This document shows, in pieces, positions 24,612-39,405 of a DNA stretch of 41,695 nt. The stretch spans positions 1 to 41,695 of the forward strand of contig DBJWYX010000001.1 of assembly GCA_052360825.1 (NCBI GenBank), in the 5' to 3' direction. How positions within the stretch are numbered: position 1 is the first letter of the stretch; the number at the start of each line of letters is the position of its first letter. The DNA is from Candidatus Wunengus sp. YC64. GTDB lineage: Bacteria; Planctomycetota; Brocadiia; Brocadiales; Brocadiaceae. The translations under genes and the position numbers were made by a program. The notes beneath the pieces were generated by a model. The model worked only from the letters and a program-made list of their open reading frames with translations. It did not search any database and was not told the DNA's origin.

Positions 24612-26255
24612 TTAACATAAGCTGAAGTTTATTTTTTCTTTAATATCTCTTTCAAAGAGATTTAAGTAGTTACCCCAAAAATAATTACTTTTAAAAATAT
24701 TATTTGCCTCATTATAATAATGCGTTGCTTGTTCTTTATTTCCTAAATTATCAAATGAATATCCTAAAAATAATAACCCAAAAGCATGATTAGGAACCAT
24801 CGTGATGACATTGTTGAAATCTTTGATGGCAAGATTGTAGTCTTGTTGTTTTAACGCATAATTTTCAATAAAGTTAATTTTAAGGTTATTGTAGTAATTA
24901 CAATCACTAAGCCAGTCTTTATCAAAGGATGGGGTAGTTAATATACTTGTGCTTTGAAGGTCTTTATAATTTATTTTTTTATTATTTATATACCCTTCTT
25001 TTATGCAATAGTCATATAAATCTGTTTTAGGAAAAGGTGAAAAAATATTTAAACTTACCCAGTTTACTTCAAGAGAGCTTGCAAAATCATATGTTTGTTG
25101 AATATCTTCTTTTGTCTCAAAGGGAAATCCTACAATAAACGAGGCCCCAATATATACTTCTTCATATTGTCTTAAATTATCAATTGCGTCTTGCACTATG
25201 TTCAAGGTCAAGGGCTTTTTTATTCTTTTAAGAGTATTGTTACAACCCGATTCAATTGCCAGGGAAAATAACTTATATCCTGATTCAACCATTTTTTTTA
25301 CCATATTTTTATTCGTTAAAGATTTTACATTTTCACCGGTTGACCCCCAATATTTAATAGGTCTTTCTTTGATTAGATAATCACAGATATCAATTACACG
25401 CTCTGAATTATGTGTAAATAAATCATCATTAATTTTAATGAAATTTATATTATATTTCTTTTTTAGATATCTAATCTCTTCTAAAACATTTTCGGCACTA
25501 CGGTATCTAATTTGGCCCCATACTTTTTTCGTAGCACAAAATCCACATTGAAATATACAGCCTCTTGATGAAACAATACTAATGGGTTTCTGATTATCCA
25601 TTATTTTTTGGTAGGAATTTCTTGCAAGTTCCCCGTAAAGATGAACGGGAAGATCTTCTAAATCAGGGAAAGGTAATTCGTCCAGATTCTGTATTTTTTC
25701 TTCCATGGGATTGACAATAGTTTTTCCTTTATCTCTATAGACAATTCCTTTTACATTGGATAATGGTATGTTATGGATAAACGCTTTTATAAGATTGTAA
25801 AAAACAATTTCACCTTCTGACAGCACAACTATATCCAAATTTACATCTTCCATAGCACATTCACTATCAAGTGTTGGATATGAGCCACCCATTACGGTTA
25901 TAATGTCTTTGTTTACATCCTTACATAATGCTATTGCTTTATGTGCCTGACCAACTACAGCATGAGAGAAAGCACTAATGCCTACAATATCAGGGTTAAA
26001 ATCTTCAATTTTCTTTTCTACCCTCCGCCATAAAATGTCCATATTGGCTTTATTATCACAAAACGTAATATATTGAATAGCATCAATATTTGAATCATAT
26101 ATCTCAATTTCTATTTCAGGAAGTTTACTTTTAACATATGATTTAATATAAGCTAAGCCCAATGGAAGTTCGGCGTCCCCTCCCTTTTTCAATATTTTTT
26201 CGTTATCATATTTACCTTCATAGGTATTGAATGGAAGTATTAGTAGTATTTTCAT
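24612..26255 (-). CDS. Cobalamin-binding-domain (class B) radical SAM enzyme, 547 aa, tandem paralog of 22945..24588
   Basis: IITVMGGSYPT...DIVVLSEGEIVF, CX3CX2C at RGCIFQCGFC, and the shared block LAIESG.NNTLKRIKKPLT / FIVGFPFE. The C-terminal tail reads AIKDFNNVITMVPNHAFGLLFLGYS. It is the same length as its neighbour. Confidence 0.85.
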   Translation of the reverse strand: MKILLILPFNTYEGKYDNEKILKKGGDAELPLGLAYIKSYVKSKLPEIEIEIYDSNIDAIQYITFCDNKANMDILWRRVEKKIEDFNPDIVGISAFSHAVVGQAHKAIALCKDVNKDIITVMGGSYPTLDSECAMEDVNLDIVVLSEGEIVFYNLIKAFIHNIPLSNVKGIVYRDKGKTIVNPMEEKIQNLDELPFPDLEDLPVHLYGELARNSYQKIMDNQKPISIVSSRGCIFQCGFCATKKVWGQIRYRSAENVLEEIRYLKKKYNINFIKINDDLFTHNSERVIDICDYLIKERPIKYWGSTGENVKSLTNKNMVKKMVESGYKLFSLAIESGCNNTLKRIKKPLTLNIVQDAIDNLRQYEEVYIGASFIVGFPFETKEDIQQTYDFASSLEVNWVSLNIFSPFPKTDLYDYCIKEGYINNKKINYKDLQSTSILTTPSFDKDWLSDCNYYNNLKINFIENYALKQQDYNLAIKDFNNVITMVPNHAFGLLFLGYSFDNLGNKEQATHYYNEANNIFKSNYFWGNYLNLFERDIKEKINFSLC

Positions 26256-26350
26256 TAAAGTTCTTTCTAAAGTTATTATAGATTTTTCAGCATGACATTA
26301 ATTTTTACTCTGCATAGTTACGAATTGACGGATAATTTATTATTTATTAG

Positions 26351-27766
26351 TTAGGTGACAGCCTTCCAATTCTTTGCTATGTAATTCAAAATAATCTGGT
26401 ATTTTGAATTAGTTGAATCATATTTGAGACTTCTTAATAATAAATGTACATTTTTTAACAGATGAAATAATTTATTAGGGGGGAGCTTTAAAAGATAAAG
26501 GATTGGTTTTTCAAATATTGGGTACTTAATCAGATAATAAAATAATTTATCGACATTAATTAACCTGTTAATGTTGTCTTGTCGAATGAGTGATGCATTT
26601 TTGTTTAAGTTACTTATTTCATTTAAAGTTGGTTCATGGTCAAGATAGCCATTTTTTACGGAATCTCTTGTTAGTGACAGACCGGGGTAGGGGATTAAAA
26701 CATTAGAGTGATAGGTGTTTGCCTTCAGTTTCCTACACAGACGAATGGTATCCATTGCTTGGTCTATCGTTTCGCCTGGCCAGCCAAAAATGATATCCGC
26801 CCCAACACGGATTTTGTATTTATGGCAAAGGTGAAAAGCTGCTTCAATCTGTTCATTTGACATCTGTCTTCCTGCGATATTTTTCCGAATTGATGGATTA
26901 CCTGATTGAATGCCAAATGTGATTCTGTCACAGCCAGATTCCTTCATGAGCAAGATGAATTCTTCATCAATATTTTCTATACGGCAATTGCATAAAAAGG
27001 GGGGGAGTTTGCGGTTTTTATATTCCTCTAAAAAGGGTTTGAGCCATTTCTTATGGGCATTGAATGTACCGTCTTGAAAATGAACCCACTTTAGTCCATA
27101 GGTATTTTTCACATATTCAATTTCACGAAAGACTGATTCTGTATCTCTCATGCGCCAATATATTTCATCATAAAATTTCTTTAATTCTGTATTGTAGCAA
27201 AAAGTACAACTATAAGCACATCCTCGAGATATAATAAAGTTTTTAGTATCATTATCTGCCAGATCACGGTATTTGTAATATAAGTCTCTGTCGGGGTCGG
27301 GCAAGACATTTAAATCAGAGGTAAGTTTTATATTATTGTTTATAAATATGTTGTCATTGGCTTCACGATATCCTATTCCCGGCACATTTTTTAATGATTC
27401 ACCATTGTTACATAATTGTAAAAAAAGGGGGAGTGTGTATTCACCATCGCCTCGAAGGACAAAGTCCACCTGAGTATTTTTAATGATCTCAGGGAAAATG
27501 AGTGTAAATGGGCCCCCCACAACCGTTTTGGATTTAGGCAGACATTGTTTCAGCCTTGAAAAGGACTCAAGCATGAATGACTCTTCACCAATAAAAAGAC
27601 TGTAAAGGATATAATCAGGCTGAAATGTAATTATCCGATCATAAAAATGAGGCTCTAAATTTTTTATGAAGATATCACACGCAACATCGATTTCTTTTAG
27701 GCATCCTGAAAGTTGTTGGACGCCAATTTTTTCATATGCGTCACGTTGAATAAATGCGACTTTCAT
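26351..27766 (-). CDS. Cobalamin-binding-domain (class B) radical SAM enzyme, 471 aa, more divergent
   Basis: N-terminal TVVGGPFTLIFPE...DFVLRGDGEYT and CX3CX2C at RGCAYSCTFC. Radical SAM core blocks are ITFGIQSGNPSIRK and IIFGWPGET. Confidence 0.8.
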   Translation of the reverse strand: MKVAFIQRDAYEKIGVQQLSGCLKEIDVACDIFIKNLEPHFYDRIITFQPDYILYSLFIGEESFMLESFSRLKQCLPKSKTVVGGPFTLIFPEIIKNTQVDFVLRGDGEYTLPLFLQLCNNGESLKNVPGIGYREANDNIFINNNIKLTSDLNVLPDPDRDLYYKYRDLADNDTKNFIISRGCAYSCTFCYNTELKKFYDEIYWRMRDTESVFREIEYVKNTYGLKWVHFQDGTFNAHKKWLKPFLEEYKNRKLPPFLCNCRIENIDEEFILLMKESGCDRITFGIQSGNPSIRKNIAGRQMSNEQIEAAFHLCHKYKIRVGADIIFGWPGETIDQAMDTIRLCRKLKANTYHSNVLIPYPGLSLTRDSVKNGYLDHEPTLNEISNLNKNASLIRQDNINRLINVDKLFYYLIKYPIFEKPILYLLKLPPNKLFHLLKNVHLLLRSLKYDSTNSKYQIILNYIAKNWKAVT

Positions 27767-27821: not shown

Positions 27822-28679
27822 CTAGCACTTATGCACAGACACCTTTCTTTCGACATGGCAAATATTTGACTTTAACCAGCCATAATAACGTAATAAAACG
27901 ATAATGAGCAGGAATGGCAAGCAACCTATTTCTGTGAACTTAATCCGTGATAAGGGGACATAAAAATCATGAAGTAAAGGATGCAGAAAAGATTTCAATT
28001 TTCTCAATATCCCCCAATTATTTCTCTGTGTGCAATAAAATAAATAATCTCCCCTTCCATAACGCGTCCATCTTTCTATGACTGATGAAAAGATATCAAA
28101 GCCAATTTCAAAACACCGAGTGTTGGAGATGGCAAAAAGCAGACCATCTCGCGACATTCTATTACACAATTCTGTGTCGTCGCTGTTTTTCATGAAGGGG
28201 TTGTATTTATATTTTTTTAAAATATCTGTTTTAAATAATGTTGGAGTACCTACCACATTTTTGTAGCCGGGGGTATATTTTCTGATACGGTAAATATTTT
28301 GAGCCCATCCCCAATAGCTGCCAGTATCACGGAGGATTGTTACTGCTGATACAATGGCACAGTTGTGTAGTTCTAAATAATTAATCATCTCTTTCAAAGA
28401 ACCTTTGGGCATAATATTATCAGGTCCGACAAAACAAATATATTTTGTATTAGACCGTTCAATGCCTATGTTTCTTGCATTGGCTAAACCTTTCGCCTGA
28501 TCATCTACTATTTCATCAACATAATCCTGTGCTATTATAGTGGTTTTATCTGTTGAACCGCCATCGACTAAAATAGTGCGTGCAGGGTTATTCTCCTTAA
28601 TAGAATCAAGGCAGTCCTTTATCGTGTTTTCTACGTTATAGCTACAAACTACAATGGTTAAATCAAGCTTGCTTATCAT
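27822..28679 (-). CDS. GT2 family glycosyltransferase (285 aa) with one C-terminal hydrophobic segment
   Basis: LTIVVCSYNVENTI...ILVDGGSTDKT...VGPDN, and the C-terminal segment IGCLPFLLIIVLLRYYGWL. Confidence 0.8.
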   Translation of the reverse strand: MISKLDLTIVVCSYNVENTIKDCLDSIKENNPARTILVDGGSTDKTTIIAQDYVDEIVDDQAKGLANARNIGIERSNTKYICFVGPDNIMPKGSLKEMINYLELHNCAIVSAVTILRDTGSYWGWAQNIYRIRKYTPGYKNVVGTPTLFKTDILKKYKYNPFMKNSDDTELCNRMSRDGLLFAISNTRCFEIGFDIFSSVIERWTRYGRGDYLFYCTQRNNWGILRKLKSFLHPLLHDFYVPLSRIKFTEIGCLPFLLIIVLLRYYGWLKSNICHVERKVSVHKC

Positions 28680-28721: not shown

Positions 28722-30068
28722 CTACCAGTACAAACCGTAATAGTTTGAATTGTGCTTATGGTTATTTCCAATTCGAACCAAGTCTAAAACAATTTTATCG
28801 GGACTCAATTGTTCCAGCCATTCATCAAGCCCTGGATATTTATTGAAAATTACAAACAATTCACAGCGCTCAGTAAAATCACGCAAGTCGCTAAACAACA
28901 TTTCTCCTATATTGGGAAGTTCTGCATATAAAAACTCTAAATTCGCTCCAATGAGCTTATCAGGGTAAAGATTTGGATCATAAACTGAAACTCCATATTT
29001 TCCACTATAGAGCATTTTGGCAATTTCAACCGCGGGACTATTTCTCAAGTCATCTGTGTCTGGCTTAAATGTTAAACCAAAGAACCCTATTTTTCTTTTG
29101 CCGAAGGATCTTATCCATGTAGCGATGTATTTAATTTGATTAAAATTGCTATTCTCAATTGAGTTTATAAGCGTTGTGGGAAAATCAAAATCTTTGGTTT
29201 TAAAACAAAATGCCCTGACGTCTTTCGGCAGGCATGAACCTCCATAAGGTTTTCCTGGCGTAAGATAAGCCCTGCTTAGGTTAAGTTTGTCATCTTTACA
29301 AAAGAGATTCATTACCTCATGCGAGTCTATACCCAGACTCCTGCAGGCAAGCCCGATTTCATTTGCAAAGGTAATTTTTAAGGCATGAAAGATGTTGTCG
29401 GCATATTTGGCCATTTGAGCAGATGAAATGTTTGTTACGATTTTTTCACCATCCACACAGTCATACAAGTGAAGAAGTGTCTGCCCAAGTGTTTCATCTC
29501 CTTCGTATACGCCGATTACTGTTTTGGCCGGATGATAAAAATCATAAATTGCAGAGCCCTCTCGTAAAAATTCAGGGTTATAGGCAATATGGACTTTATC
29601 AGGAGAAAGATTTTTTTTATAGTACAGTAGGGGGTAGAGTACTTTATCCATTATCCCAGGAGGCATAGTACTGCGGTAGACAAGGATGTGTTCTTTCCCT
29701 AGTGTTGATAAAATATCAGCAATTTCTTGGGTAACTCGGGTAATATATGTCATGTCAATGTCACCATCATTATGGCTCGGCGTTCCTACACAGATCATTG
29801 ACAATTCGGTTTGCTCAAGAGCATCTTTCAGATTTAAAGTAGCAGTTAGGCGTCTTTTCTTAACGCCAGCAAGAATTAAATCATCTAATTCTGGCTCTGT
29901 TACAGGGGAGTGCCCTGATTTTATACAGGATACTTTGTATTCTTGTATATCAACACCGATGACTTCATGCCCTTCCTGAGAAAAGCAGCCGCAACTCGTG
30001 CTTCCGACATAGCCCAAACCAATAATACTGATCTTCAATAAACCTCTCCTCGGAGAAAAAGTATTCAT
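28722..30068 (-). CDS. Nucleotide-sugar 6-dehydrogenase (UDP-glucose/GDP-mannose dehydrogenase family; N-terminus resembles AlgD-type GDP-mannose 6-dehydrogenase)
   Basis: KISIIGLGYVGSTSCGCFSQEGHEVIGVDI Rossmann fold and the catalytic Cys motif GGSCLPKD. The C-terminal nucleotide-sugar-binding domain reads FGLTFKPDTDDLRNSP. Confidence 0.8.
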   Translation of the reverse strand: MNTFSPRRGLLKISIIGLGYVGSTSCGCFSQEGHEVIGVDIQEYKVSCIKSGHSPVTEPELDDLILAGVKKRRLTATLNLKDALEQTELSMICVGTPSHNDGDIDMTYITRVTQEIADILSTLGKEHILVYRSTMPPGIMDKVLYPLLYYKKNLSPDKVHIAYNPEFLREGSAIYDFYHPAKTVIGVYEGDETLGQTLLHLYDCVDGEKIVTNISSAQMAKYADNIFHALKITFANEIGLACRSLGIDSHEVMNLFCKDDKLNLSRAYLTPGKPYGGSCLPKDVRAFCFKTKDFDFPTTLINSIENSNFNQIKYIATWIRSFGKRKIGFFGLTFKPDTDDLRNSPAVEIAKMLYSGKYGVSVYDPNLYPDKLIGANLEFLYAELPNIGEMLFSDLRDFTERCELFVIFNKYPGLDEWLEQLSPDKIVLDLVRIGNNHKHNSNYYGLYW

Positions 30069-30071
30069 TCC

Positions 30072-31361
30072 TCAATGTTTCCGGAAAACAGATTCGACAA
30101 TCTTTCCTTTAAGAAGTGATTTCAGCTCTTTTGATTCATCGTTATTCTTTATCAAAGAAAAAATCTGATCGTAAGCGTTTAGTGTTTGATTAATTTCATT
30201 CTCGGTGTGGGAAACACTTATGATATGATACCCAGCGTATAAGATTCCTCGTTTTATCATCTCTTGCTGAACAATACTTTTAAGAAGTAAGTCATCATTA
30301 CCGTGTTTATCCGTAAAAAACATAAACGTCTTAGGAGGATACCCTTTCAAATGTATTCGGCGTTCAAGATCATATTTATTTAATAAGATACTTACCCCGT
30401 CTATGAGTATATTGCCCATTTTCCATATATGAGATATCGCATTAGTTGTCGCTAATTCCTTTATTACCGTTAATCCTGCGGTAATACCAACCAAGTCTCC
30501 CCCAAAAGTGAAAGAATAAAAGATTTCATCAAATATTTTCATAATGTCACTATTGCCTACAATAACTGAAATTGGGAATCCGTTACCCAATGCTTTGCCA
30601 AAACAAGCAAGATCAGGGGTAATGCCAAAGAATTCTTGCGCACCACCGATGGCCCATCGGAAACCAGTCCAGCATTCGTCGTAAATAACCAGTGCACCGT
30701 TGTTGTGGGCTATTTTATTGATTCTTTCTAAAAAATTATCTTTCGGGGGTTCCAAACCAACAGGTTCGAGAATAACACATGCAATTTGGTCGGGATGGAG
30801 AGAGAATAGTCTTTCAAGCGAAGCAGGATTATTGTATTCAAAGGTAACCGTTAATTCTTTAATGGCTTTTGGCACGCCGAGGTTACGCGTGGTAGTACCA
30901 ATATACCAATCCTGCCACCCATGATAGCCACAGCAGGCAATCATATTCCTTCCGGTATATGCTCTTGCAGTACGAACTGCCCCTGATGTTGCATCAGATC
31001 CATTTTTACCAAATCTCACCATCTCGGCACAGGGAATGGTTTCACATAATTTCTCAGCCAGTTCAATTTCCTTGTGATGCGGTAATGAGAAGGCGACTCC
31101 TTTGTCTATCTGAGATTTAACTGCCTCGTTAACCTTTGGATTATTGTGCCCCAGGATAATTGGACCTAAGGCCATGGGCCAATCTATAAATTTGTTTCCA
31201 TCTACGTCCCATACAAAGCAGCCATCAGCTCTATCTAAAAATATTGGTGATACACCGAATGGGTATTGTGTCCATCCCTTGCTAAACGTCTGTGTGCCGG
31301 AGGGTATATACTTTATAGCATTATCAAACATACCCAGGGATTGGCTGAAAGTTAGAGGCAT
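30072..31361 (-). CDS. Class III PLP-dependent aminotransferase (glutamate-1-semialdehyde aminomutase-like)
   Basis: FVWDVDGNKFIDW...GPIILGHNNP, VRFGKNGSDAT, IYDECWTGFRW, and the PLP-lysine context CFGKALGNGFPIS. Confidence 0.85.
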   Translation of the reverse strand: MPLTFSQSLGMFDNAIKYIPSGTQTFSKGWTQYPFGVSPIFLDRADGCFVWDVDGNKFIDWPMALGPIILGHNNPKVNEAVKSQIDKGVAFSLPHHKEIELAEKLCETIPCAEMVRFGKNGSDATSGAVRTARAYTGRNMIACCGYHGWQDWYIGTTTRNLGVPKAIKELTVTFEYNNPASLERLFSLHPDQIACVILEPVGLEPPKDNFLERINKIAHNNGALVIYDECWTGFRWAIGGAQEFFGITPDLACFGKALGNGFPISVIVGNSDIMKIFDEIFYSFTFGGDLVGITAGLTVIKELATTNAISHIWKMGNILIDGVSILLNKYDLERRIHLKGYPPKTFMFFTDKHGNDDLLLKSIVQQEMIKRGILYAGYHIISVSHTENEINQTLNAYDQIFSLIKNNDESKELKSLLKGKIVESVFRKH

Positions 31362-32206
31362 ACCATATCCTTTGTTAAAGATTTCTTATAACCCTCATCG
31401 CGCAGGATATGTTTATTAATTACCCTAATTTCAGGATATTTATTAAGTGTCTGGAGGATGTCTCGCCATGAAGCATCTACAAGTGAAATTGACAAGGATT
31501 TTGACAATTCTTGTAAGAATATAAAATCGTCAGGTTCATCGATGGTCCAACGTTCATCTCTAAGGTTTTCAGGACATGAGTAATTAATAGCTTGAAACAT
31601 ATATTCTGATGTTTCATTTATTGGTATGCATACATCTGGAAAGATTTCTTCAGTTTCGTAATTGAGGGATTTATAAAGGTTCTTGCCGTGTAATTGGGTG
31701 CGTTTGAGAATCCAAGGAACAACGTGCTCTCTTTCTGAAGCAAGTTTTGCATTCTTCCATGCCAATTCTAAAGCATTAAAAGAGAATACGCATACATCGA
31801 GACCATCAGGAAAAGCAGTGGCAACTGCGAGATCTACATTCGACTGATGGTAGCTCTTGATTACGTTATCTATGATATCTGGATCTACCAAAGGGCAATC
31901 TCCCGTTAATCTCACAATGTGATTGACCCCATATGACAAGGATGCTTGATAGTATCGGTCTAAAACATCTTTTTCTGATCCTCTGAAACAGGGAATTTCG
32001 TGTTGTTGGGCAACATACTCAATGGCGCCGTTTGCGGGTTCTGTTGATGTCACAACAACGATACCATCTAATTCTTTTGAACGTTTTAACCTTTCCAGCA
32101 TAACTCCTATAACAGGTTTCCCTTGTAAAGACATAAGGACCTTTCCTGGTAATCGTGATGAGTGTACTCTGGCCTGCAATAAAGCAACAGTATTATGCAT
32201 TTTCAT
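31352..32206 (-). CDS. SpsF-type cytidylyltransferase (CMP-ulosonic acid synthetase family candidate)
   Basis: ALLQARVHSSRLPGKVL...GKPVI...VVVTS...GSEKDVLDRYY...RLTGDCPLVDP, as in the CTP_transf_3/SpsF family. It overlaps the downstream aminotransferase gene by 10 nt. Confidence 0.75.
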   Translation of the reverse strand: MKMHNTVALLQARVHSSRLPGKVLMSLQGKPVIGVMLERLKRSKELDGIVVVTSTEPANGAIEYVAQQHEIPCFRGSEKDVLDRYYQASLSYGVNHIVRLTGDCPLVDPDIIDNVIKSYHQSNVDLAVATAFPDGLDVCVFSFNALELAWKNAKLASEREHVVPWILKRTQLHGKNLYKSLNYETEEIFPDVCIPINETSEYMFQAINYSCPENLRDERWTIDEPDDFIFLQELSKSLSISLVDASWRDILQTLNKYPEIRVINKHILRDEGYKKSLTKDMVCL

Positions 32207-32371
32207 ATAATTCCCTTATGGTGAGAACCCTATGTAGTTCCTTTAAAAAAGTTTTCTTGAGATGTTCCGTATAATCGGGAAAATCTCCTGAAAAAGTGTC
32301 AAACATTAAAAGTATTTAAATTACTGTAAATTCTATTTGCAGAAATTTATATAGTAAAATATCGGTAAAAA

Positions 32372-33052
32372 TCATTTTGTAAATTCTGATGAATAATAAG
32401 TGTGTTCTACCACACAATTATTCTTTTGAGCTACTGCGCATAAATATTCTCTGTTTTTTTCTTCATCAATAGTAAGATTTTGCTTATGAAGTCTGTATCT
32501 GTAAAGTGGCAAGTTTATACGTTCTATTTTATAGTGTTTTTCGAAACGTATTCGAAAATCAACATCCTCTCCAATATGAAGTTCAGTATCATATAAACCT
32601 ATATTTATCATCAGACCTTTTTTAAACATGATCCCGCAAGCAATGGGCCGTTCATGGACACTCATTTTATTGAGAATCGTTTCCTTGTCATCGACGAGAA
32701 AATAGTCAGTTGCCACGGCATCAGAATGATTAAATTGCATGTATAGATAGCAAAATTTCAGAAAATCAGGATGCAAATAATCATCCGCATCAAGATTGAC
32801 GATGTAATCACCTTTTGCATTCATAATGCCTTGATTACGAGAATAAGGTAAGCCTTTGTTATCAGCATGATCTATTACACGAATCCAATGACCGTAGGAC
32901 TCTAAAATATATTTTGTGGAATCCTTACTGCTGTCGTTGACAACGATAATTTCAAAATCTGTTTTGGAAAGAGATTGCTCTATGCAGCTTCTGATTGCCC
33001 TTGCAATGTATTTATCATAATTGAATGTCGGAATAATTATGCTTATTTTCAT
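32372..33052 (-). CDS. GT2 family glycosyltransferase (226 aa)
   Basis: ISIIIPTFNYDKYI...IIVVNDSSKDST...LDADD. Confidence 0.85.
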   Translation of the reverse strand: MKISIIIPTFNYDKYIARAIRSCIEQSLSKTDFEIIVVNDSSKDSTKYILESYGHWIRVIDHADNKGLPYSRNQGIMNAKGDYIVNLDADDYLHPDFLKFCYLYMQFNHSDAVATDYFLVDDKETILNKMSVHERPIACGIMFKKGLMINIGLYDTELHIGEDVDFRIRFEKHYKIERINLPLYRYRLHKQNLTIDEEKNREYLCAVAQKNNCVVEHTYYSSEFTK

Positions 33053-33055
33053 GGT

Positions 33056-34120
33056 TTATTCCAGATAATCCCAGAGTATCTGCTGATCTCTTTGTATTGT
33101 TGTTTTCAATTTTCGCCCTAAGGTTTTATGGAAGAGTGAAGGAGAAATACCTCCGCCTGGACGTTTTGGAATGAGCATATCCTTTGTGAGAACAGTTCCC
33201 TGAGGAATGACTTCATTTGCTACTAAACTCCGTCGAGCATTCTTCCGTGCAGGCATTTCTGAATCAACAATTTCAGCAGTTATGGCAGTAGTCTCCTCGG
33301 CTAATTTAATATGCTTTATCATCCGGCGTAGCAAGGTAGTGTCAGCGGAATGATAATGATCATCTTCAGGAAGAGTACGATCTAAGGTAAAATGCTTTTC
33401 TACAATTTTGGCACCCAAAGCCACCGCAATTGCAGGAATGATTATGTCTTCGTCGGGAACGGTATGGTCTGAATAACCAATAGTAATTTCAGGAAACAAC
33501 TTTTTTAGTTCTGCTATTCTATATAAATTTGCTTCACCATTAGGGGTTGGATATGAAAGGGTACAATGCATTAGAGCCAATTCTTTTACGCTTTTTGATA
33601 TTAAGAAATCAACGGCATTGCTGACTTCTTTGAAGTAGGAGGCGCCAGTTGAAAGGATTATTGGTTTTTGCGTTTGAGCAATTTCCTCAAGTAATGGATA
33701 GTTGTCTAAGTCACCTGATGCAACCTTCATGAAAGGGATATCCAGATCGTTCAGCCACCTCACGGATTGATGATCAAATGGGGTTGAACAAAAGTTAATT
33801 TCCTTTTTCTTTGCATATTCATTTAACACTTGATAATCTTCAAAATTAAATTTATCCCTTTTTTGAAAACAATCAGCTTGTGTTTTATATTTTTTGCTGT
33901 TATTTTGTTTCCAGTAGGTAGGGGCCCAATGCGTTACCAGGGTATCTGCTTTATAGGTTTGAAATTTAATAGTATCTGCCCCGGCTTCGGCAGCAGCATT
34001 TATAAGTTCTTTTGCTTTCCTTAAATCACAATCATGATGTACACCAGCTTCTGCAATAATAAAGGTATTGCAGGTTTTGTTTTTCTTGTGTTGAGATAAA
34101 AAATTTCTATTTTGCTCCAT
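33056..34120 (-). CDS. NeuB-family ulosonic acid synthase (sialic/pseudaminic/legionaminic acid synthase type) with C-terminal SAF domain
   Basis: FIIAEAGVHHDCDLRKAKELINAAAEAGADTIKFQTY, GYSDHT, and the SAF-like tail RRSLVANEVIPQGTVLTKDMLIPKRPGGGI. The exact substrate cannot be told from sequence. Confidence 0.88.
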   Translation of the reverse strand: MEQNRNFLSQHKKNKTCNTFIIAEAGVHHDCDLRKAKELINAAAEAGADTIKFQTYKADTLVTHWAPTYWKQNNSKKYKTQADCFQKRDKFNFEDYQVLNEYAKKKEINFCSTPFDHQSVRWLNDLDIPFMKVASGDLDNYPLLEEIAQTQKPIILSTGASYFKEVSNAVDFLISKSVKELALMHCTLSYPTPNGEANLYRIAELKKLFPEITIGYSDHTVPDEDIIIPAIAVALGAKIVEKHFTLDRTLPEDDHYHSADTTLLRRMIKHIKLAEETTAITAEIVDSEMPARKNARRSLVANEVIPQGTVLTKDMLIPKRPGGGISPSLFHKTLGRKLKTTIQRDQQILWDYLE

Positions 34121-34155
34121 TCTTTCTATCCTCTATGAGTAACAAGAAAAATACT

Positions 34156-35160
34156 CTAGATAAATTCAAGTCTCGTTTCTAAATATTCCTTCATATCTCC
34201 AACACTCACCCAGACAACACACTTATTACATACAGGGACATAATCCCATTGTGAGTTTAAATGTGCTTGGCGTATTTTGCGAATAGGCAGGTCCTGCCAA
34301 ATATTACGGAGACATTTTTTGTGAATATTGCCGACCACGCCTGAATAATTCCAGTCGACATTGCAGATAGAAACATCTCCATTGCTGTTTACTGCAAGTG
34401 CATACCACAGCAGCGCACATGGGTAACGGTATGGTGATGTTTCATCTGTTACCGTCAAATTATTTATAGCTCCATTCCAGTTATGAATTCCGGTTACTTG
34501 AACCTGATCTGCGATGCCTTCCCATGTATTGTGAAATGCTTCAATTTCATCATCGCTTATTTGATTAAATTCCATTATCTTTACTCGTATCGTGGTTATG
34601 GCGCCAATTTTGTCTCTATATTCAATGAAAGATTTAATGTTGTCGTTTAAGACATTAAAACCTCGACGTTGCTTCAATTTTTGATATGTTTCAGCAAATG
34701 CGGCATCAATACTGATGGTTATGTCATCAATTCCTGATTCTAATAGCTGTTTTCCTCTTGGTGTGTTTAATAATGTTCCATTGGTATTTAAATGAATGAC
34801 TTTTGCTATGTTTTTCTCCTTGGCATAAGCAACCATCTCTGGCAGTTCTTTGTTTAATAAGGGCTCACCATCTTTGTGTAGATTCAGCATGATAAGCCGA
34901 TTGTCTTCATTTATTTCATCGATTATTTTTTTAAACGTTTTCATCGAAAGATAATTCGTTCCCTGTTGTTGAACAGTTTTCTCTCTTGGACAAAAAATGC
35001 AACTTAAATTGCAGGCATTTGTTGGTTCAATGTTCAAAACTAATGGGAAATTGGTGGTAATGTGCTTCTTAATGATTTCTGGTTTAAGACATGTTAGACT
35101 TCCGTCAACATAGTCTTCATGGATAGGCTTATGGTATTGTATGGATTGACCTCTTCCCAT
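34156..35160 (-). CDS. Radical SAM enzyme with SPASM/twitch-like C-terminal Cys cluster (334 aa)
   Basis: CX3CX2C at PTNACNLSCIFCPRE. The C-terminal Cys-rich region reads YPCALLW...GDVSICNVDW...KKCLRNIW...VPVCNKCVVW. It is the first gene to the left of the IS relic. Confidence 0.85.
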   Translation of the reverse strand: MGRGQSIQYHKPIHEDYVDGSLTCLKPEIIKKHITTNFPLVLNIEPTNACNLSCIFCPREKTVQQQGTNYLSMKTFKKIIDEINEDNRLIMLNLHKDGEPLLNKELPEMVAYAKEKNIAKVIHLNTNGTLLNTPRGKQLLESGIDDITISIDAAFAETYQKLKQRRGFNVLNDNIKSFIEYRDKIGAITTIRVKIMEFNQISDDEIEAFHNTWEGIADQVQVTGIHNWNGAINNLTVTDETSPYRYPCALLWYALAVNSNGDVSICNVDWNYSGVVGNIHKKCLRNIWQDLPIRKIRQAHLNSQWDYVPVCNKCVVWVSVGDMKEYLETRLEFI

Positions 35161-35254
35161 TAGATCTCTTAATACCTAAAAAATATTAAAATACTGACTA
35201 AACGTAACACATATCAATATTTTTTAAATTTTTATTAAAAACGGGAAAACAATG

Positions 35255-35270
35255 CGCAAATATCTAGCCA
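35255..35270 (-). promoter_or_regulatory. Candidate sigma-54 (-24/-12) promoter upstream of the island's first gene
   Basis: The minus strand reads TGGCTAgatatTTGCg. The GG and GC dinucleotides have the exact consensus spacing (TGGCAC-N5-TTGCW) and TTGC is exact; the -24 hexamer deviates at 2 positions. It lies about 95 nt upstream of the ATG at 35160. Confidence 0.35.
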
Positions 35271-35528
35271 AAGTATGTGATAAGGAGGCCGTAAAGTAGA
35301 AAAGCAAAGAAAAACTTCCAATTGCAGGTTTTATGTACTTAAGTAAGAAAAAACACAGGATAATTACGGTTAGTTATGATGTGTAATGTTTAAAATTTAA
35401 ACGGTTATAAGTTATTAGGTAGAAATTAACAACGATAAACATTTTGCTCAAGTATTGCTTTATAGAGCAAGATATCTCCACAATAATGACAAATTTTGTG
35501 GAGAACTTGATCAGGCAGTCCGTCAAGG

Positions 35529-36097
35529 ATGAGCTATGCATGTAAGCGTGAACTTGAATTAGCACTTGAGAAACCACAAAAAGATTCTGGCATTAATTGT
35601 GCGCGTTGGGACGGTATTGTAGTTGGAGAGTATTTAAAACGAGTTCTTGGTATGGCGATTCTGGTATGATGCGCTCAACAGTTGCTGCATAAATTGGGGT
35701 ATAACCCTCAAGGAACCATTGTATCGTTTTGTTCAGGCATTGAAGAGAGGCGTAAAAGGATTCTACGTCTCATTTAAAAAACTTCACATGATCCAAGAAG
35801 GAGTTGAAAATCGAATGATTCTTTTTGCTGATGATGCAAGTTTTTTCCTGCATCTAATGCTTGAAAGAATGTGGTCTAAAAAAGGGAAACAACAATCCTT
35901 ATATGCCCAACCAGCATCAGAAGCGTTTGAATGTTACTGGTTGGGTTGATCCGATACATGGCTTGCATGGAATGATGAAGTGCATATGGGCAATACAAAA
36001 AGCTTTCTTGCATTCCTTAAGAATATTACACAAACGATGGCATCAAAAAAAGATAGTGTCGCTTGTAATCGTATATAAGCGTATACTATGTAATTAA
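35529..36097 (+). pseudogene. IS630/Tc1-mariner-family transposase relic, frameshifted and 3'-truncated
   Basis: Three consecutive plus-strand frames carry collinear IS630-like blocks. The first is ...CARWDGIVVGEYLKRVLG (35529..), then (W)YDALNSCCINWGITLKEP, then ILFADDASFFLHLMLERMWSKKGKQQSL (first acidic residue region). The next frame gives QKRLNVTGWVDPIHGLHG...AFLHSLRILHKRWHQKKIVSLV. The second and third catalytic acidic regions are missing where the TPR gene's 3' end begins. More degraded N-terminal remains may extend left to about 35230. Confidence 0.55.
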
Positions 36098-37203
36098 TCA
36101 ATGACAAGACTCACCCTATGCACACGAGACGGTTGCGGTAGGCTTTCTAGTGCAGCTATGATATCCTGTTGTTGTGGGTCTATGGCTAAGGACTTATTCC
36201 AAACGCTCCTCGCCCTGATTGGATTTTCAGCCATTTTGTAGCAATGTCCTAAAAGGTTGTAGAGCGGAATTATTTCATCTGTGTCCGTTGTTTCTGACAA
36301 TATGGAGTTAATACTATGGCTTGTCTCATGGGTTTCGATAGATTTTTCTATGAAACAAATAGCGTCCTGGTATTTTTTTTGGTCGTAATAAAGTTTTCCT
36401 AAATTGTTGACTGCACTGATATAGGATATGTCAAGTTTTGCAGCCATTGTAAATAATGCCTCTGCCTGCTTATCCATTCCCAATTCAATGCAACATTCAC
36501 CCAGCAAGTTATATGCCTCGGTATTATTTTTGTCCATGAGTAATGTCTCTCTGAGGTGTTTCATGGCCCTGGGATACATTTTTTGCATCTTATAGATGAT
36601 TCCAAGTAAAAAATGCACTTCGGGAAGAGATGAATCGGTTTTGAGTACGCGCAAGAGGATATTTTTGGCCTTTGTGTAATTGTCTTTCTTGATAAGTAAT
36701 TTACAAAGGTTTACAGCAGGTGGTATATAATCTGGTTTTAAGCTGAAAGATTCAGTGAAGAAGGATTCCGCTTCTTTTTCTAAACCGAGGTGGATGTGGC
36801 ACAATCCCATGAAATAATAAGTTTCATAATCGTCGGGTTTGGCCAGTACAACTTCTTTGAAATGAGAGAGCGCCATAGTGTATTCTTTGCGCTCCATATA
36901 CAAAGAAGCAAGATTATAATGGGCTTCAGTTAAAGCAAAATCAATGTGTAATGCTTTTTTAAATTTATTGATTGCCTCCATATATTTTTTGTTTCTGATG
37001 TAATAAATTCCCAGGTGATTGTAACCTTGGGCATAACGGGGGTTCATTTCAACGGCGGCCTTTAAGTATGGATAGGCTTCATCCCAGCTGCCTTTTTCAA
37101 TCAAGGTGTTTGCAAGAGTGACATTAATATCGAAATCATTGCAATTGTCATCGTTATTGGTTGGAACGGTATTAAAAGAATTATTTTTCATTACGTTTAT
37201 CAT
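36094..37203 (-). CDS. Stand-alone TPR repeat protein (369 aa), 12 nt downstream of csrA
   Basis: At least 8 TPR-like 34-mers, for example WDEAYPYLKAAVEMNPRYAQGYNHLGIYY, YMEAINKFKKALHIDFALTEAHYNLASLY and YQDAICFIEKSIE. There is no catalytic motif. Confidence 0.8.
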   Translation of the reverse strand: MINVMKNNSFNTVPTNNDDNCNDFDINVTLANTLIEKGSWDEAYPYLKAAVEMNPRYAQGYNHLGIYYIRNKKYMEAINKFKKALHIDFALTEAHYNLASLYMERKEYTMALSHFKEVVLAKPDDYETYYFMGLCHIHLGLEKEAESFFTESFSLKPDYIPPAVNLCKLLIKKDNYTKAKNILLRVLKTDSSLPEVHFLLGIIYKMQKMYPRAMKHLRETLLMDKNNTEAYNLLGECCIELGMDKQAEALFTMAAKLDISYISAVNNLGKLYYDQKKYQDAICFIEKSIETHETSHSINSILSETTDTDEIIPLYNLLGHCYKMAENPIRARSVWNKSLAIDPQQQDIIAALESLPQPSRVHRVSLVID

Positions 37204-37215
37204 GACTTCATTCCT

Positions 37216-37494
37216 TTATGAAAGATGTTTTGAAGAAACCATTTCTTCAGATGTGGACTTTTTTACACCTTTTCGCCATATTTGGGCAATTTCTATTAGA
37301 TCATGTTTAGACACTGTGGAAGCCTTCTGGTTTTCCTCTTGAATCTTTTCGAAAATTTCTTCCCGATGAACCTTGATATTTTTTGGCGCTATGATGCCCA
37401 ACTTAACCTGTTTGCCCTGGCATTCTAATAGGGTAACTTTTATTTCGCTTCCTATGGTGATGCTTTCTCCTAACTTCCTTGTCAGTATAAGCAC
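37216..37494 (-). CDS. csrA: Carbon storage regulator CsrA (92 aa, GTG start, long C-terminal extension)
   Basis: [47 protein letters not shown] is the canonical CsrA core. It lies immediately downstream of fliW. The start codon is the complement of 37492..37494, which is GTG. Confidence 0.92.
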
Positions 37495-37523
37495 GGTACT
37501 TTACCTTTCTGAAAGTTGATCAA

Positions 37524-37994
37524 TTAATATCGAATGAGCTGTTGGTTTAAGCTGTAATAGTCCTCTGTGAGCACGACCTGTTTCCCCATTTTATTTTTCA
37601 TGTTAATGAGTATCGGTCCTTTTAGATTTAGCGTTACATCTTCTGGCTTTTTCCCCAGGGTAACAATACAAAACATTTCAACGTCTTTTTCCTTTTTGAT
37701 GTTAAGCAAGACAAGATCATCTTTTGATAGAGAGGGTTTATAATCAGAGAAAAAGAGTGTTGGATTAAGGATGGGAAAAGCAACCATCGGGTCTTCCAAA
37801 GAAACCAGCCATTCAAAAGGAAGACATTCTTCAACAGCTATAATGGCAAATTGTTTCAGCTCTTCAAATCCCAATAATCCTTGTTCAAATGTTATTATAT
37901 TTTCCTTTTCAATGCTCAAGTTGCCGAAATTACTCGTTGATAATTTTACTACCGTACTGCTTTCTTTCATTGGCCTTTCTTCCATTTTTAACAT
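37524..37994 (-). CDS. fliW: Flagellar assembly factor FliW (CsrA antagonist)
   Basis: NIITFEQGLLGFEELKQFAII...PFEWLVSLEDPMVAFPILNP...INMKNKMGKQVVL. An AGGAG sits 6 nt upstream of the ATG at 37994. Confidence 0.9.
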   Translation of the reverse strand: MLKMEERPMKESSTVVKLSTSNFGNLSIEKENIITFEQGLLGFEELKQFAIIAVEECLPFEWLVSLEDPMVAFPILNPTLFFSDYKPSLSKDDLVLLNIKKEKDVEMFCIVTLGKKPEDVTLNLKGPILINMKNKMGKQVVLTEDYYSLNQQLIRY

Positions 37995-38048
37995 GTTATG
38001 CTCCTGTCGTGGATAAAGTTTAAAGAAATAAAATTATTAGTGAAATTT

Positions 38049-38064
38049 AGCAAACATTGTGCCA
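38049..38064 (-). promoter_or_regulatory. Sigma-54 (RpoN) -24/-12 promoter upstream of fliW-csrA-TPR
   Basis: The minus strand reads TGGCACaatgtTTGCt, a full match to the TGGCAC-N5-TTGCW consensus. It is located about 55 nt upstream of the fliW ATG, inside the 296-bp flgL-fliW spacer. Confidence 0.6.
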
Positions 38065-38290
38065 TGAAATGCGCATGAAATTATGTAAAATGTGAATGAG
38101 ATTCTATTCTATTTAAAATAATGAACTTAAGAATGGTGTGGTTTATATTCGTTTTAATCAATGATGTGATTTATTAAAAAAAAGGGGAAAATTATTCCAT
38201 ATAGGTAAAAAATTCTAAGGGGGATATATTCCGTAGATTAGTGAGGATGTAATATCTTTACACAGGTTGATTAATTTTTATACAGGGAAT

Positions 38291-39202
38291 TTATCTTAAA
38301 AAATCAAGAAGGGTCTGTTGAATGACCATTGCGCCTGTTTTCAGGGAGGATTGAAGGACGTTTTCCTGGTGTTGCAAGTCTACAATTAAAGATGCGACGT
38401 CAGCGTCTTCGGTATATGAAATCAGTTCCTTTAATGCCGTTTGTGAATTTCCCAGGCTGTTTGTGGTCATTTCCAACCTGTTAGCCTTTGCGCCAAACTT
38501 GGTAATTTCTGTAGATAGGGCATTCGTCGCAGTATCAAAGGTGTTTCTCAAGTTTGAAAAGGCTGTGGAATCAAAAGTGCTTGCCTTTAATGCGTCTCGT
38601 AATGATATCAGTGTGGAGAAGGCCTTATTGTCCTGGAATAATTTACCTCCGGGTAAGTTTACCTGTATTAATGTGTCGGGGCCTATCTGGTATTTAATTT
38701 CTTCATTATTACCGTTGTAGGATACAGATGTAATGTTACCATTGCTGTCCCGTGTGGCTGTAAAAGCAGATGTGAGAGTCTTTGTGCCTGAAAATATATA
38801 TCGGCCATTATTGTCTGTGTTTGCGTTTTGCAGAACAGACTCCAGCAATTCGTCTAATTCATTTGCAATGATGTTCCTGTCAGACTGTCCAAGTGTATCA
38901 TTACCAGCTTGAATGGCCAGATCTTTGATCTTCAAAAAGAGTTCCTGTATGCTTTCGAGCGTGTTGGATGTGTAATTTATCTGTTCTTTAGCAGTTTCGG
39001 TATTATCTAAAAATTGCTGTACCTGGAGCTCTTCTGCTCTTAAACCAAGGACTTTTCTGGTGCCAGAGGGGTCGTCAGAAGGGCGGTTAATTTGTTTTCC
39101 ACTGGATAGCTTTTCCTGTATTCCTTGTATTTTCTTATAGTTCAAATTGATATTAGAAAGTGTTGTGCGGTTTAAGCTTTCCTGGGTTATTCTGAAGGGC
39201 AT
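38291..39202 (-). CDS. flgL: Flagellar hook-associated protein 3 (hook-filament junction) FlgL
   Basis: Flagellin-type N-terminus RITQESLNRTTLSNINLNYKKIQGIQEKLSSGKQINRPSDDPSG and C-terminus DADVASLIVDLQHQENVLQSSLKTGAMVIQQTLLDFL. It follows flgK. A GGAG sits 8 nt upstream of the ATG. Confidence 0.9.
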   Translation of the reverse strand: MPFRITQESLNRTTLSNINLNYKKIQGIQEKLSSGKQINRPSDDPSGTRKVLGLRAEELQVQQFLDNTETAKEQINYTSNTLESIQELFLKIKDLAIQAGNDTLGQSDRNIIANELDELLESVLQNANTDNNGRYIFSGTKTLTSAFTATRDSNGNITSVSYNGNNEEIKYQIGPDTLIQVNLPGGKLFQDNKAFSTLISLRDALKASTFDSTAFSNLRNTFDTATNALSTEITKFGAKANRLEMTTNSLGNSQTALKELISYTEDADVASLIVDLQHQENVLQSSLKTGAMVIQQTLLDFLR

Positions 39203-39259
39203 AGTTTAATCTCCAATAATTAAGTAAATTAGGCTGCCTGCGGCGGCAACTTTTAAGCT

Positions 39260-39333
39260 CCCCTCTAGAAAGAGGGGCTGGGGATGTGTTGTGGCAAACA
39301 TACACACCCCTTTATCCCCTCTTTTTAGAGGGG
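39260..39333. repeat. Three adjacent GC-rich stem-loops in the flgK-flgL spacer; the two outer ones share the same 7-bp stem
   Basis: First hairpin: CCCCTCT-agaa-AGAGGGG (39260-39277). Second, imperfect hairpin: GGGGaTGTGT...ACACACCCC (39280-39310). Third hairpin: CCCCTCT-tttt-AGAGGGG (39316-39333). The structures are visible directly; their function is unknown. Confidence 0.55.
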
Positions 39334-39405
39334 AATCACAAAAGATTGGAATTCCTGTACATCAAGGTATTGCAATTTAACCAGTAAACTGTGCAGTAAA
39401 GAAAA

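Follow-up and report, generated by a model that had tools for sequence, protein, structure and literature searches.

The first 41,695 nucleotides (nt) of contig DBJWYX010000001.1 from Candidatus Wunengus sp. YC64 (assembly GCA_052360825.1; Planctomycetota, Brocadiaceae), hereafter the window, carry at positions 30072-35160 of the minus strand a cassette of five intact, co-directional and tightly spaced open reading frames (gaps of -10 to 165 nt). Read from 34156 down to 30072, these encode a radical SAM/SPASM enzyme, a synthase of the NeuB type with its SAF domain, a glycosyltransferase of 226 amino acids (aa) belonging to family GT2, an SpsF-type cytidylyltransferase and a class III aminotransferase. 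The cassette is a real and conserved variant of ulosonic acid biosynthesis that is so far uncharacterised. Its genes, all on the minus strand, are as follows:

34156..35160, minus strand: radical SAM enzyme, 334 aa (Pfam Radical_SAM and SPASM, the SPASM match covering residues 248-314)
33056..34120, minus strand: NeuB-family synthase condensing a sugar with phosphoenolpyruvate (PEP), 354 aa (PF03102, 264 bits, residues 39-277; SAF, PF08666, residues 296-354)
32372..33052, minus strand: minimal GT2 of GT-A fold, 226 aa (Pfam Glycos_transf_2, 116 bits)
31352..32206, minus strand: SpsF-type cytidylyltransferase, 284 aa (PF02348 CTP_transf_3, 102.7 bits, residues 7-185)
30072..31361, minus strand: class III aminotransferase dependent on pyridoxal phosphate (PLP) and similar to glutamate-1-semialdehyde (GSA) aminomutase, 429 aa (PF00202 Aminotran_3, 178 bits)

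Nonulosonic acids cap the flagella, S-layers, capsules and lipopolysaccharides of bacteria, where they shape both phage/host recognition and the charge of the cell surface. To our knowledge, all the characterised bacterial routes to these sugars begin with either a short-chain dehydrogenase/reductase (SDR) dehydratase that depends on nicotinamide adenine dinucleotide (NAD) or an epimerase of the NeuC type. A preliminary description of the locus had remarked that the NeuB-type synthase and the SpsF-type cytidylyltransferase were present in the window and that their usual Pse, Leg or NeuC partners were not. Both observations are borne out when the long minus-strand reading frames covering the window, together with the edge fragment at 3-569, are scanned against Pfam and NCBIfam; short reading frames overlapping these genes on the opposite strand were left out. 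The first stands on the matches to NeuB, SAF and CTP_transf_3 in intact reading frames. As for the second, the scanned frames contain no DegT, Epimerase_2 (NeuC/LegG) or PseB/Polysacc_synt_2 domain, no PseG/Glyco_tran_28 domain and no acetyltransferase of the PseH/LegH type (hexapeptide or GNAT). Thus the window has neither the canonical pseudaminic acid (Pse) set of PseB, the DegT enzyme PseC, PseH and PseG, which is also mostly missing from the sibling loci described below, nor the legionaminic (Leg) and neuraminic acid (Neu) sets, that is LegB/LegC/LegH/LegG and the hydrolysing 2-epimerase NeuC. The claim of absent partners does require two additions, since a fragment of a GDP-mannose 4,6-dehydratase (Gmd; 3-569), the sole dehydratase in the scanned frames, and an amidotransferase of the PseA/WbuX type (20971-22074) occur in the window. 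No protein of the cassette attains the curated cut-off of any characterised NCBIfam equivalog.

That these five genes belong together is shown by their distribution. A metagenome scan with a profile of the radical SAM enzyme yielded 76 loci, and the counts that follow rest on the 39 loci for which 9 kb or more around the radical SAM relative was analysed; the 39 include the near-duplicates L126/L127, L105/L106, L002/L117 and the window/L090/L091. A NeuB-like gene is found in 35 of the 39 and an SpsF-type cytidylyltransferase in 34, while 32 have a small GT2 or a PseG-like gene and 30 an aminotransferase (class III in 25, DegT in nine, both in four). The gene order of L001 and L086 is identical to that of the window, and in L002 and L004 the same genes recur, except that a DegT enzyme stands in for the class III enzyme. 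The five-gene set travels together across named lineages of several phyla and in varied surroundings. Such a shared arrangement, seen on dozens of independent metagenomic contigs, is far beyond chance. Rather than being bystanders, the small GT2, the aminotransferase and the radical SAM enzyme belong integrally with NeuB and the cytidylyltransferase, and this partnership is conserved. The preliminary description had bracketed the latter two genes with these same three and a sugar 6-dehydrogenase; the three have proved to be conserved partners, but the dehydrogenase, found in the window and L090 only, has not.

Ordinary NeuB loci are organised differently. A profile search of reference genomes with the alignment of the NeuB clade relied on generic patterns and returned such ordinary loci, which served as a negative control. 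In the 80 reference genomes concerned, where identity to the window NeuB is at most 44%, these loci are without close relatives of the radical SAM enzyme (two weak matches fall below 30% identity), and none except L026 has a close homologue of the small GT2 beside NeuB. Within the cassette itself, the comparison with two relatives of about 95% DNA identity reveals more synonymous than non-synonymous codon differences in every gene, the most constrained being the small GT2 with 13 synonymous and one non-synonymous codon differences relative to L090. Every gene of the cassette is hence under purifying selection.

The loci fall into two architectures, of which the window represents one: radical SAM enzyme, NeuB, small GT2, cytidylyltransferase and aminotransferase. 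The other, seen on Omnitrophota-like contigs (L088, L120, L126-L128, L133-L139, L145), has the order PIG-L deacetylase, WbqC, carbamoyltransferase, radical SAM enzyme, class III aminotransferase, SpsF-type cytidylyltransferase, second radical SAM/SPASM enzyme, HemK-like methyltransferase or B12-radical SAM enzyme, NeuB and PseG-like protein. In the NeuB of this second type the C-terminal region has FFAPS in place of the KRPG motif, and the pocket motif is GPDQKCS.

The synthase of the window is a NeuB family member whose scores remain below the cut-offs of both the N-acetylneuraminate/legionaminate synthase model TIGR03569 (340.4 vs 399.65 bits) and the pseudaminate synthase (PseI) model TIGR03586 (253.2 vs 340.25 bits). 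When it is aligned with the Neisseria meningitidis enzyme (1xuu), residues E24, K52, Q54, H219, H243 and R320 correspond to E25, K53, Q55, H215, H236 and R314, and these six, which comprise the metal-binding histidine pair, the catalytic and PEP-binding Glu/Lys/Gln and the SAF arginine, are invariant in the clade. The clade is also marked by the motifs EDDHYHS and IAEAGVHH[DG]C, whose canonical counterparts are GPDHKASLE and IAEAGVNHNG; within the former, E252 and D253 are additional invariant acidic residues where canonical enzymes have GP. A NeuB with the EDDHYHS motif was met only in this cassette. All homologues of at least 55% identity lie on metagenomic contigs or on contigs of metagenome-assembled genomes (MAGs), and each neighbourhood inspected was the same cassette. 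Across L006-L165 several motif classes of NeuB can be distinguished, namely the canonical GPDHKASLE, the EDDHYHS of the window clade, the GPDQKCS of the second cassette type, a GNDHYHAMD class that usually, but not always, has an insertion of the NYYDIAKE type, and short forms (about 235 aa) that have GPDHSGS. Members of the radical SAM family occur together with several of these NeuB classes.

No NCBIfam model passes its cut-off on the radical SAM enzyme, the best being spiro-SPASM with 104 bits vs 250. The family is a tight one (334 matches of about 332-349 aa), and its named members are MAGs of Thermodesulfobacteriota, Deltaproteobacteria, Magnetococcales and Omnitrophota. In an alignment of 26 homologues the CX3CX2C radical SAM motif (C50/C54/C57) is invariant, and the only other invariant cysteines are C248, C266, C311 and C314 together with the N-terminal C24. 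Twitch enzymes hold one auxiliary [4Fe-4S] cluster with four cysteines and full SPASM domains hold two with seven or eight, so that the four invariant C-terminal cysteines point to a single auxiliary cluster of the Twitch kind; their spacing resembles what we take to be that of the auxiliary-cluster ligands in BtrN. BtrN (4m7t) is likewise the first match in a Foldseek search with the AlphaFold2 (AF2) model (mean confidence score, pLDDT, 91.7; E-value 2.9e-12, target-normalised TM-score 0.73), followed by DesII and then by SuiB, BlsE, MoaA, anSME and SpeY, and it is also the top PDB sequence match.

BtrN turns an alcohol into a ketone that an aminotransferase then aminates, and in radical SAM dehydrogenases, BtrN and anSME among them, the auxiliary cluster serves as an electron sink. 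On the basis of the modelled fold, the cysteines and the gene context we propose that the cassette enzyme is a sugar dehydrogenase, putatively independent of both oxygen and NAD. The window and most of the loci with the radical SAM gene have no sugar alcohol dehydrogenase (SDR genes occur in 10 of the 39 and Gfo-type genes in six), which leaves the radical SAM enzyme as the only redox candidate. It is likely the oxidising partner here, a part that would be played in other lineages by a fused Gfo/Idh/MocA dehydrogenase.

The class III aminotransferase retains the motifs of the Schiff-base lysine, FGK(256)ALGNG, and of the PLP-binding aspartate, YD(228)ECWTGFR. Its best NCBIfam model, the GSA-aminomutase-like PRK06209, gives 414 bits vs a cut-off of 486, and HemL (TIGR00713) 274 vs 527. 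This low score, the context of a glycan island and the fusions of its relatives to cytidylyltransferase, NeuB and dehydrogenase domains place the protein outside HemL. In the PDB its matches are GSA aminomutases and then, as the first enzymes acting on sugars, the GenB C-6' aminotransferases. The fusions were collected by a HMMER search of 1.84 billion cluster representatives, of which the best 150 (50% identity clusters) were classified, with Pfam checks on ten. Among these 150 closest representatives, 34 are fusions of a CTP_transf_3 cytidylyltransferase to the aminotransferase, one of them a triple Gfo/Idh/MocA::cytidylyltransferase::aminotransferase protein of 1026 aa. Gfo/Idh/MocA::aminotransferase fusions account for four more (five if the triple is counted), and single or paired cases involve NeuB (one), GNAT (two), an SDR (aminotransferase::SDR, one) and a PseF-like domain (one); an APH-kinase fusion was also seen. 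Such fusions link the aminotransferase with the pathway of NeuB and the cytidylyltransferase and identify a sugar alcohol dehydrogenase as its usual partner. For the cassette we propose that the aminotransferase acts on the carbonyl which the radical SAM enzyme produces and aminates it. A DegT-type aminotransferase replaces it in L002, L004 and other loci, which implies that the class III fold is not essential; these substitutes match KdnA (5k8b) at 8e-40 and perosamine synthases better, at 3e-56.

The SpsF-type cytidylyltransferase, which judging from its family is proposed to be a synthetase of ulosonic acids activated with cytidine monophosphate (CMP), also remains below the relevant equivalogs (PseF, 21 bits vs 206; the KdsB models, 40-67 vs 155-281). 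In the PDB it matches 6oew (6.1e-33) and then KdsB structures. In L087 and L089 it is fused to the class III aminotransferase, and these two are minimal loci in which the radical SAM gene is accompanied by this fusion and a GT2 (L087) or by the fusion and nothing else (L089). Neither has a NeuB within about 8-10 kb on each side of the radical SAM gene. The minimal loci suggest that the trio is able to work on an ulosonic acid from another source, much as KdnB, KdnA and KdsB of Shewanella act on 3-deoxy-D-manno-oct-2-ulosonic acid (Kdo).

There remains the small GT2, whose closest structure is an uncharacterised glycosyltransferase of 228 aa (PDB 6p61, 4.7e-59). This structure, the cytidylyltransferase match 6oew and 6ncs, a short NeuB, are presumably all structural-genomics targets from Leptospira. 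NeuB enzymes require a free aldose, and for this reason the known pathways include PseG, LegG or NeuC. In the window the PseG-type GT-B fold (TIGR03590) is missing and the GT-A fold GT2 is there instead. Where the flanks are sufficient, the small GT2 adjoins 22 of 39 NeuB genes and a PseG-like gene adjoins seven, never both; at the level of the 39 loci the small GT2 is present in 22 and the PseG-like gene in 10, again never together. The PseG-like gene beside NeuB in the second cassette type scores 103 bits with TIGR03590. L026, from an Actinomycetota MAG, has GT2, NeuB and cytidylyltransferase in a row without the radical SAM enzyme or the aminotransferase. In Bacillus salipaludis (L166, 7374-10053) a 541-aa CTP_transf_3::Glyco_tran_28_C (SpsF::PseG-like) fusion lies directly upstream of NeuB. 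Taken together, the complementarity of GT2 and PseG-like genes, the triad of L026 and this fusion make the base pathway look like hydrolase, synthase and cytidylyltransferase. From the distribution alone we infer that the hydrolase slot is filled by either a GT-B PseG-like protein or a minimal GT-A protein, and we propose on this same ground that the small GT2 is a nucleotide-sugar hydrolase in the position of PseG, LegG or NeuC. The Bacillus salipaludis fusion is neighboured by a gene similar to alpha-2,8-polysialyltransferases, Wzy and a flippase, and no dehydratase or aminotransferase is adjacent.

The reading that we favour, though tentatively and with somewhat less than half of our confidence, is that the five genes form a self-contained and conserved module which makes a CMP-activated ulosonic acid bearing an extra and probably free amine, and does so without the canonical Pse/Leg/Neu precursor enzymes. 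In such a scheme the minimal GT2 would free an aldose from a common nucleotide sugar, the role suggested by its distribution, and the NeuB-type synthase, with its conserved catalytic residues, would condense the freed sugar with PEP. The BtrN-like radical SAM enzyme, needing neither NAD nor O2, would then turn a hydroxyl on the ulosonic acid, or on the CMP form of this acid, into a carbonyl, a step suggested by fold, cysteine pattern and context. The class III aminotransferase, which has its PLP residues and is linked to the pathway by gene fusions, would convert this carbonyl to an amine, and the SpsF-type cytidylyltransferase would yield the CMP-sugar. As the module has no N-acetyltransferase, the amine that it installs may be left free or undergo a later modification. 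The idea in the preliminary description of a non-standard ulosonic acid, aminated or radical-modified, survives in this form as the best reading, on account of the conserved partners and the fusions; a role in it for the 6-dehydrogenase does not.

A number of observations weigh against this scheme. Which sugar is the substrate, which carbon is oxidised and in what order the steps run are all deduced from the genes alone, and the genome is visible only within the 41.7 kb of the window. The hydrolase role of a GT2 fold is a guess that rests solely on complementary distribution. A second, PseF-like cytidylyltransferase is present in 11 of the 39 loci, and the SpsF-type enzyme might activate something else. 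DesII, a deaminase/dehydratase, is on a par with BtrN in the fold search, and SuiB and BlsE score similarly. Six loci hold a Gfo/Idh/MocA dehydrogenase in addition to the radical SAM enzyme, so one does not simply stand in for the other. As for the DegT substitutes, their nearest relatives are perosamine synthases and LegC/PseC, enzymes whose substrates are nucleotide sugars and which work ahead of the condensation. Finally, a Leg-like cluster that includes a deacetylase, and not this cassette, has been credited with the free-amine sugar of the anammox bacterium Ca. Kuenenia stuttgartiensis, discussed below.

The last but one of these points leads directly to the main rival, which we regard as unlikely while taking it seriously. 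In it the order is that of the Pse and Leg pathways: a nucleotide sugar is first processed by the radical SAM enzyme and the aminotransferase, after which come hydrolysis by the GT2, NeuB and the cytidylyltransferase. The five genes would then correspond one-to-one to five of the six canonical steps, and besides the affinities of the DegT replacements this order could draw on DesII, an enzyme of TDP-sugars that shares the top of the fold matches, and, as a soft inference, on E252 and D253 of NeuB, which could bind the ammonium of an incoming amino sugar. However, the frequency of fusions between aminotransferase and cytidylyltransferase (34 of 150) and the minimal modules, devoid of NeuB within about 8-10 kb on each side, fit late, neighbouring steps better, and we know of no class III aminotransferase that acts on nucleotide sugars.

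Less probable still in our view is that NeuB and the cytidylyltransferase merely supply the last steps of a standard pathway (Neu, Leg or Pse) and that its early genes are located in another part of the genome, the other three genes tailoring other sugars of the glycan. The restricted view of the genome leaves room for this, the related Kuenenia does possess legB/legC/legG homologues, the island includes the Gmd fragment and the PseA-like amidotransferase, and the model that the synthase comes closest to is NeuB/LegI. But both enzymes fall below all of the curated equivalog cut-offs, the EDDHYHS subclade is confined to this cassette as far as we have met it, the five genes co-travel across several phyla in changing surroundings, and fusions of the aminotransferase to NeuB and to the cytidylyltransferase exist.

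An equally small probability attaches to a pair of the DesI/DesII type, in which transamination followed by radical deamination would give an ulosonic acid with an extra deoxy position and no added amine. The desosamine pathway is an established precedent for an aminotransferase working with a radical SAM lyase, and DesII is a joint top structural match. Such a pair needs a prior keto sugar, however, and most loci have neither an SDR nor another dehydrogenase; moreover, the invariant four-cysteine auxiliary site is typical of radical SAM dehydrogenases and not of DesII, and the GNAT::aminotransferase fusions imply that in some lineages the amine is kept and acylated. Very improbable, lastly, is a product that is not an ulosonic sugar, such as another CMP- or CDP-linked amino compound (compare CMP-aminoethylphosphonate), for although the cytidylyltransferase matches no curated equivalog and minimal modules lack NeuB, NeuB keeps all the metal-, PEP- and sugar-binding residues of the Neisseria meningitidis enzyme, every context inspected is a glycan locus (glycosyltransferases, Wzz/export or flagellar genes), and PseG-like and PseF-like genes co-occur with the module.

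A bolder reading of the module is possible, although here our doubts outweigh our belief more clearly. The cassette may be the first radical-SAM-dependent route to a nonulosonic or related ulosonic acid, with a BtrN-like enzyme in place of an NAD-dependent dehydratase or dehydrogenase, a GT-A hydrolase and a previously undescribed CMP-amino-ulosonic acid as the product, possibly C-methylated or chain-extended by the B12-radical SAM enzymes encoded next to the cassette. It would then be widespread in uncultured and in many cases anaerobic bacteria (anammox Planctomycetota, Thermodesulfobacteriota, Omnitrophota, Magnetococcales). In the literature searched we found no paper that links a radical SAM enzyme with NeuB.

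Comparison with known systems helps to delimit what is shared and what is not. With the Pse and Leg pathways of Campylobacter and Helicobacter the cassette would have in common a NeuB-family enzyme that uses PEP and a free amino sugar, activation by a CTP_transf_3 enzyme, an aminotransferase, a dedicated enzyme that frees the sugar from its nucleotide, and a typical setting in a flagellar or surface glycosylation island. Unlike them, it has no SDR 4,6-dehydratase, N-acetyltransferase, GT-B hydrolase or 2-epimerase; in those places are the radical SAM enzyme, the class III aminotransferase (DegT in siblings) and the minimal GT2, and its NeuB and cytidylyltransferase fall below the LegI/NeuB, PseI and PseF cut-offs. 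The route to Kdo8N in Shewanella (KdnB, KdnA, KdsB) follows the same logic, in that an already formed ulosonic acid is oxidised, transaminated and then cytidylylated. There, however, the oxidant is an iron-type alcohol dehydrogenase and not a radical SAM enzyme, the transaminase KdnA is of the DegT type and not class III, and the synthase is KdsA and not NeuB-like; in the scanned frames of the window neither the KdnB nor the KdnA family was found. The likeness is one of logic and not of membership, and only the DegT variants of the sibling loci resemble KdnA.

In butirosin biosynthesis BtrN and BtrS make 2-deoxystreptamine by the same principle, a Twitch radical SAM dehydrogenase and a PLP aminotransferase converting an alcohol to an amine under anoxic conditions. 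The systems GenK/GenQ/GenB1 and NeoQ/NeoB, which aminate C-6', offer a further parallel, as the cassette has B12-radical SAM neighbours comparable to GenK. Yet the cassette enzyme has only about 17% sequence identity to BtrN, its proposed substrate is an ulosonic acid or nucleotide sugar and not an aminocyclitol pseudo-oligosaccharide, and no aminoglycoside genes are present.

A trio reminiscent of part of the cassette is known from Leptospira interrogans, where neuB2 (with extra domains), a PLP aminotransferase without an assigned role and neuA2 are found together at LA_1613-LA_1615 and have been read as an animal-like route to N-acetylneuraminic acid (PMC3438082; PMC4758666). It differs from the cassette in that no radical SAM partner is reported. 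Closer in phylogeny, anammox bacteria have been reported to carry on their S-layer glycans CMP-activated and methylated nonulosonic acids that bear a free amine (10.1101/2020.12.03.409086). In Ca. Kuenenia stuttgartiensis, where the S-layer glycan is heavily methylated, the sugar is assigned to a Leg-like cluster with legB/legC/legG homologues, a deacetylase and a formyltransferase (10.64898/2026.04.20.719630). The anammox group, CMP activation, an amine-bearing and methylated sugar and a surface glycoprotein are what this case shares with the window, and its heavy methylation fits the many methyltransferases of the island; the cassette, on the other hand, has none of the Leg-like genes and instead the radical SAM enzyme, the class III aminotransferase and the GT2. 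We considered the window cassette as the source of the Kuenenia free-amine sugar and rejected it, since that sugar is assigned to the Leg-like cluster. An unassigned 10-carbon CMP-ulosonic acid is described from Magnetospirillum (10.64898/2026.04.20.719630). That chain-modified products arise by way of the B12-radical SAM genes beside the cassette is conceivable, as a matter of speculation.

If the proposed route is correct, the nonulosonic acid field would be extended by a novel enzymatic logic and, probably, a novel sugar. A function would also be found for a large orphan family, the class III aminotransferases with GSA aminomutase annotations, in which roughly one in four of the closest relatives is a fusion with an SpsF-type cytidylyltransferase, and there would be gene candidates for unexplained environmental ulosonic acids such as the anammox free-amine sugars and the Magnetospirillum 10-carbon CMP-ulosonic acid. 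The module is small enough for heterologous expression, and Bacillus salipaludis could be a culturable model of the hydrolase, synthase and cytidylyltransferase triad.

The cassette is embedded in a larger island that occupies the rest of the window:

36094..41379, minus strand: FlgK, FlgL/flagellin-like protein, FliW, CsrA and a TPR protein (Pfam), the upstream context
35161..36093, no strand: non-coding spacer of 933 nt upstream of the cassette, variable in close relatives, a probable promoter region
28722..30068, minus strand: nucleotide-sugar 6-dehydrogenase, UDP-glucose dehydrogenase-like (TIGR03026, 365 bits), just downstream of the cassette
27822..28679, minus strand: second GT2, 285 aa (Pfam Glycos_transf_2), a candidate glycan transferase
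22945..27766, minus strand: three tandem B12-binding radical SAM enzymes of 471, 547 and 547 aa (Pfam B12-binding and Radical_SAM in all three)
20971..22074, minus strand: N-acetyl sugar amidotransferase of the WbuX/PseA family (TIGR03573, 328.7 bits vs a cut-off of 203.2)
15198-18272, minus strand: 1024-aa fusion of an N-terminal radical SAM/SPASM part, a central SAM methyltransferase and a C-terminal part resembling an (alpha/alpha)6 barrel
816-15176, minus strand: four giant multi-domain glycosyltransferase/TPR/methyltransferase proteins (Pfam domains)
3..569, minus strand: residues 1-189 of a GDP-mannose 4,6-dehydratase, truncated by the left edge of the window (TIGR01472, 322 bits)

The preliminary description named the 6-dehydrogenase among the bracketing enzymes and pointed to class III aminotransferases of the NeoB/BtrB type, which act on oxidised sugar carbons. 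A pairing of the 6-dehydrogenase with such a transaminase at C6 has found no comparative support, the gene being outside the conserved module: it accompanies the cassette in the window and in L090 and is absent at that place in L001, L086, L002 and L004. It is an accessory, lineage-specific insertion, and as a core mechanism the supply of its aldehyde to a NeoB-like transaminase was rejected because the sibling cassettes do not have the dehydrogenase. Equivalents of the second GT2, about 290 aa long, directly follow the aminotransferase in L004 and L086 and lie further downstream in L087.

The three B12-radical SAM enzymes, one of which has C-terminal TPR repeats, are judging from their domains likely C-methyltransferases or other tailoring enzymes, and similar genes flank the cassette in L001, L004, L086, L088 and others. 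The amidotransferase family of WbuX and PseA converts N-acetyl to acetimidoyl groups on amino sugars including pseudaminic acid, and a member is found in five sibling loci too. Several methyltransferase genes are located downstream in the island. The radical SAM part of the 1024-aa fusion is 27% identical to the cassette enzyme, and its C-terminal part gives weak matches to GH127, LanC and squalene cyclases. Three of the giant proteins combine, respectively, three GT2 domains and TPR (918 aa), GT2, GT4/GT1 and TPR (1187 aa), and GT1, TPR and GT2 (955 aa); the fourth (1403 aa) consists of a methyltransferase, TPR, a GT1-like domain and two TylF/Methyltransf_24 domains. These fusions of TPR and glycosyltransferase domains recall the flagellin glycosyltransferases GmaR and FgtA. 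The Gmd fragment is 85% identical to a Gmd encoded about 4 kb upstream of the L087 cassette, and a Gmd is near the cassette in L134 as well; a link between Gmd and the cassette was considered and left unproven, as these are only three loci.

On the upstream side the flagellar genes suggest a flagellar glycosylation island. With B12-radical SAM enzymes, methyltransferases, the amidotransferase and TPR-glycosyltransferases all beside flgK-flgL-fliW-csrA, the sugar of the cassette may well be destined for a heavily methylated glycan of the flagellum or of another surface protein in an anammox planctomycete. The TPR protein belongs to a 90%-identity cluster in which the named members are from Planctomycetota, Ca. 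Brocadiaceae and Ca. Wunengus. The FlgK-FlgL-FliW-CsrA-TPR arrangement is kept in L091, and the near-identical contigs L090-L093 from Hainich groundwater and other metagenomes keep the order of flagellar genes, TPR gene, spacer and cassette. The spacer has undergone insertions and deletions, the alignments to L090, L091 and L092 breaking at 36033 and near 35443-35598. Its only open reading frame (35647-35949, plus strand) has no Pfam match, and the idea of a transposase remnant at this place is for that reason unsupported. A scan of 27.5-37.6 kb for promoters and terminators produced no terminator of use, and promoter-like sites were fewer there than in shuffled sequence. Inside the cassette, the 165-nt gap between the GT2 and cytidylyltransferase genes (32207-32371) holds about 104 nt that are absent from L090.

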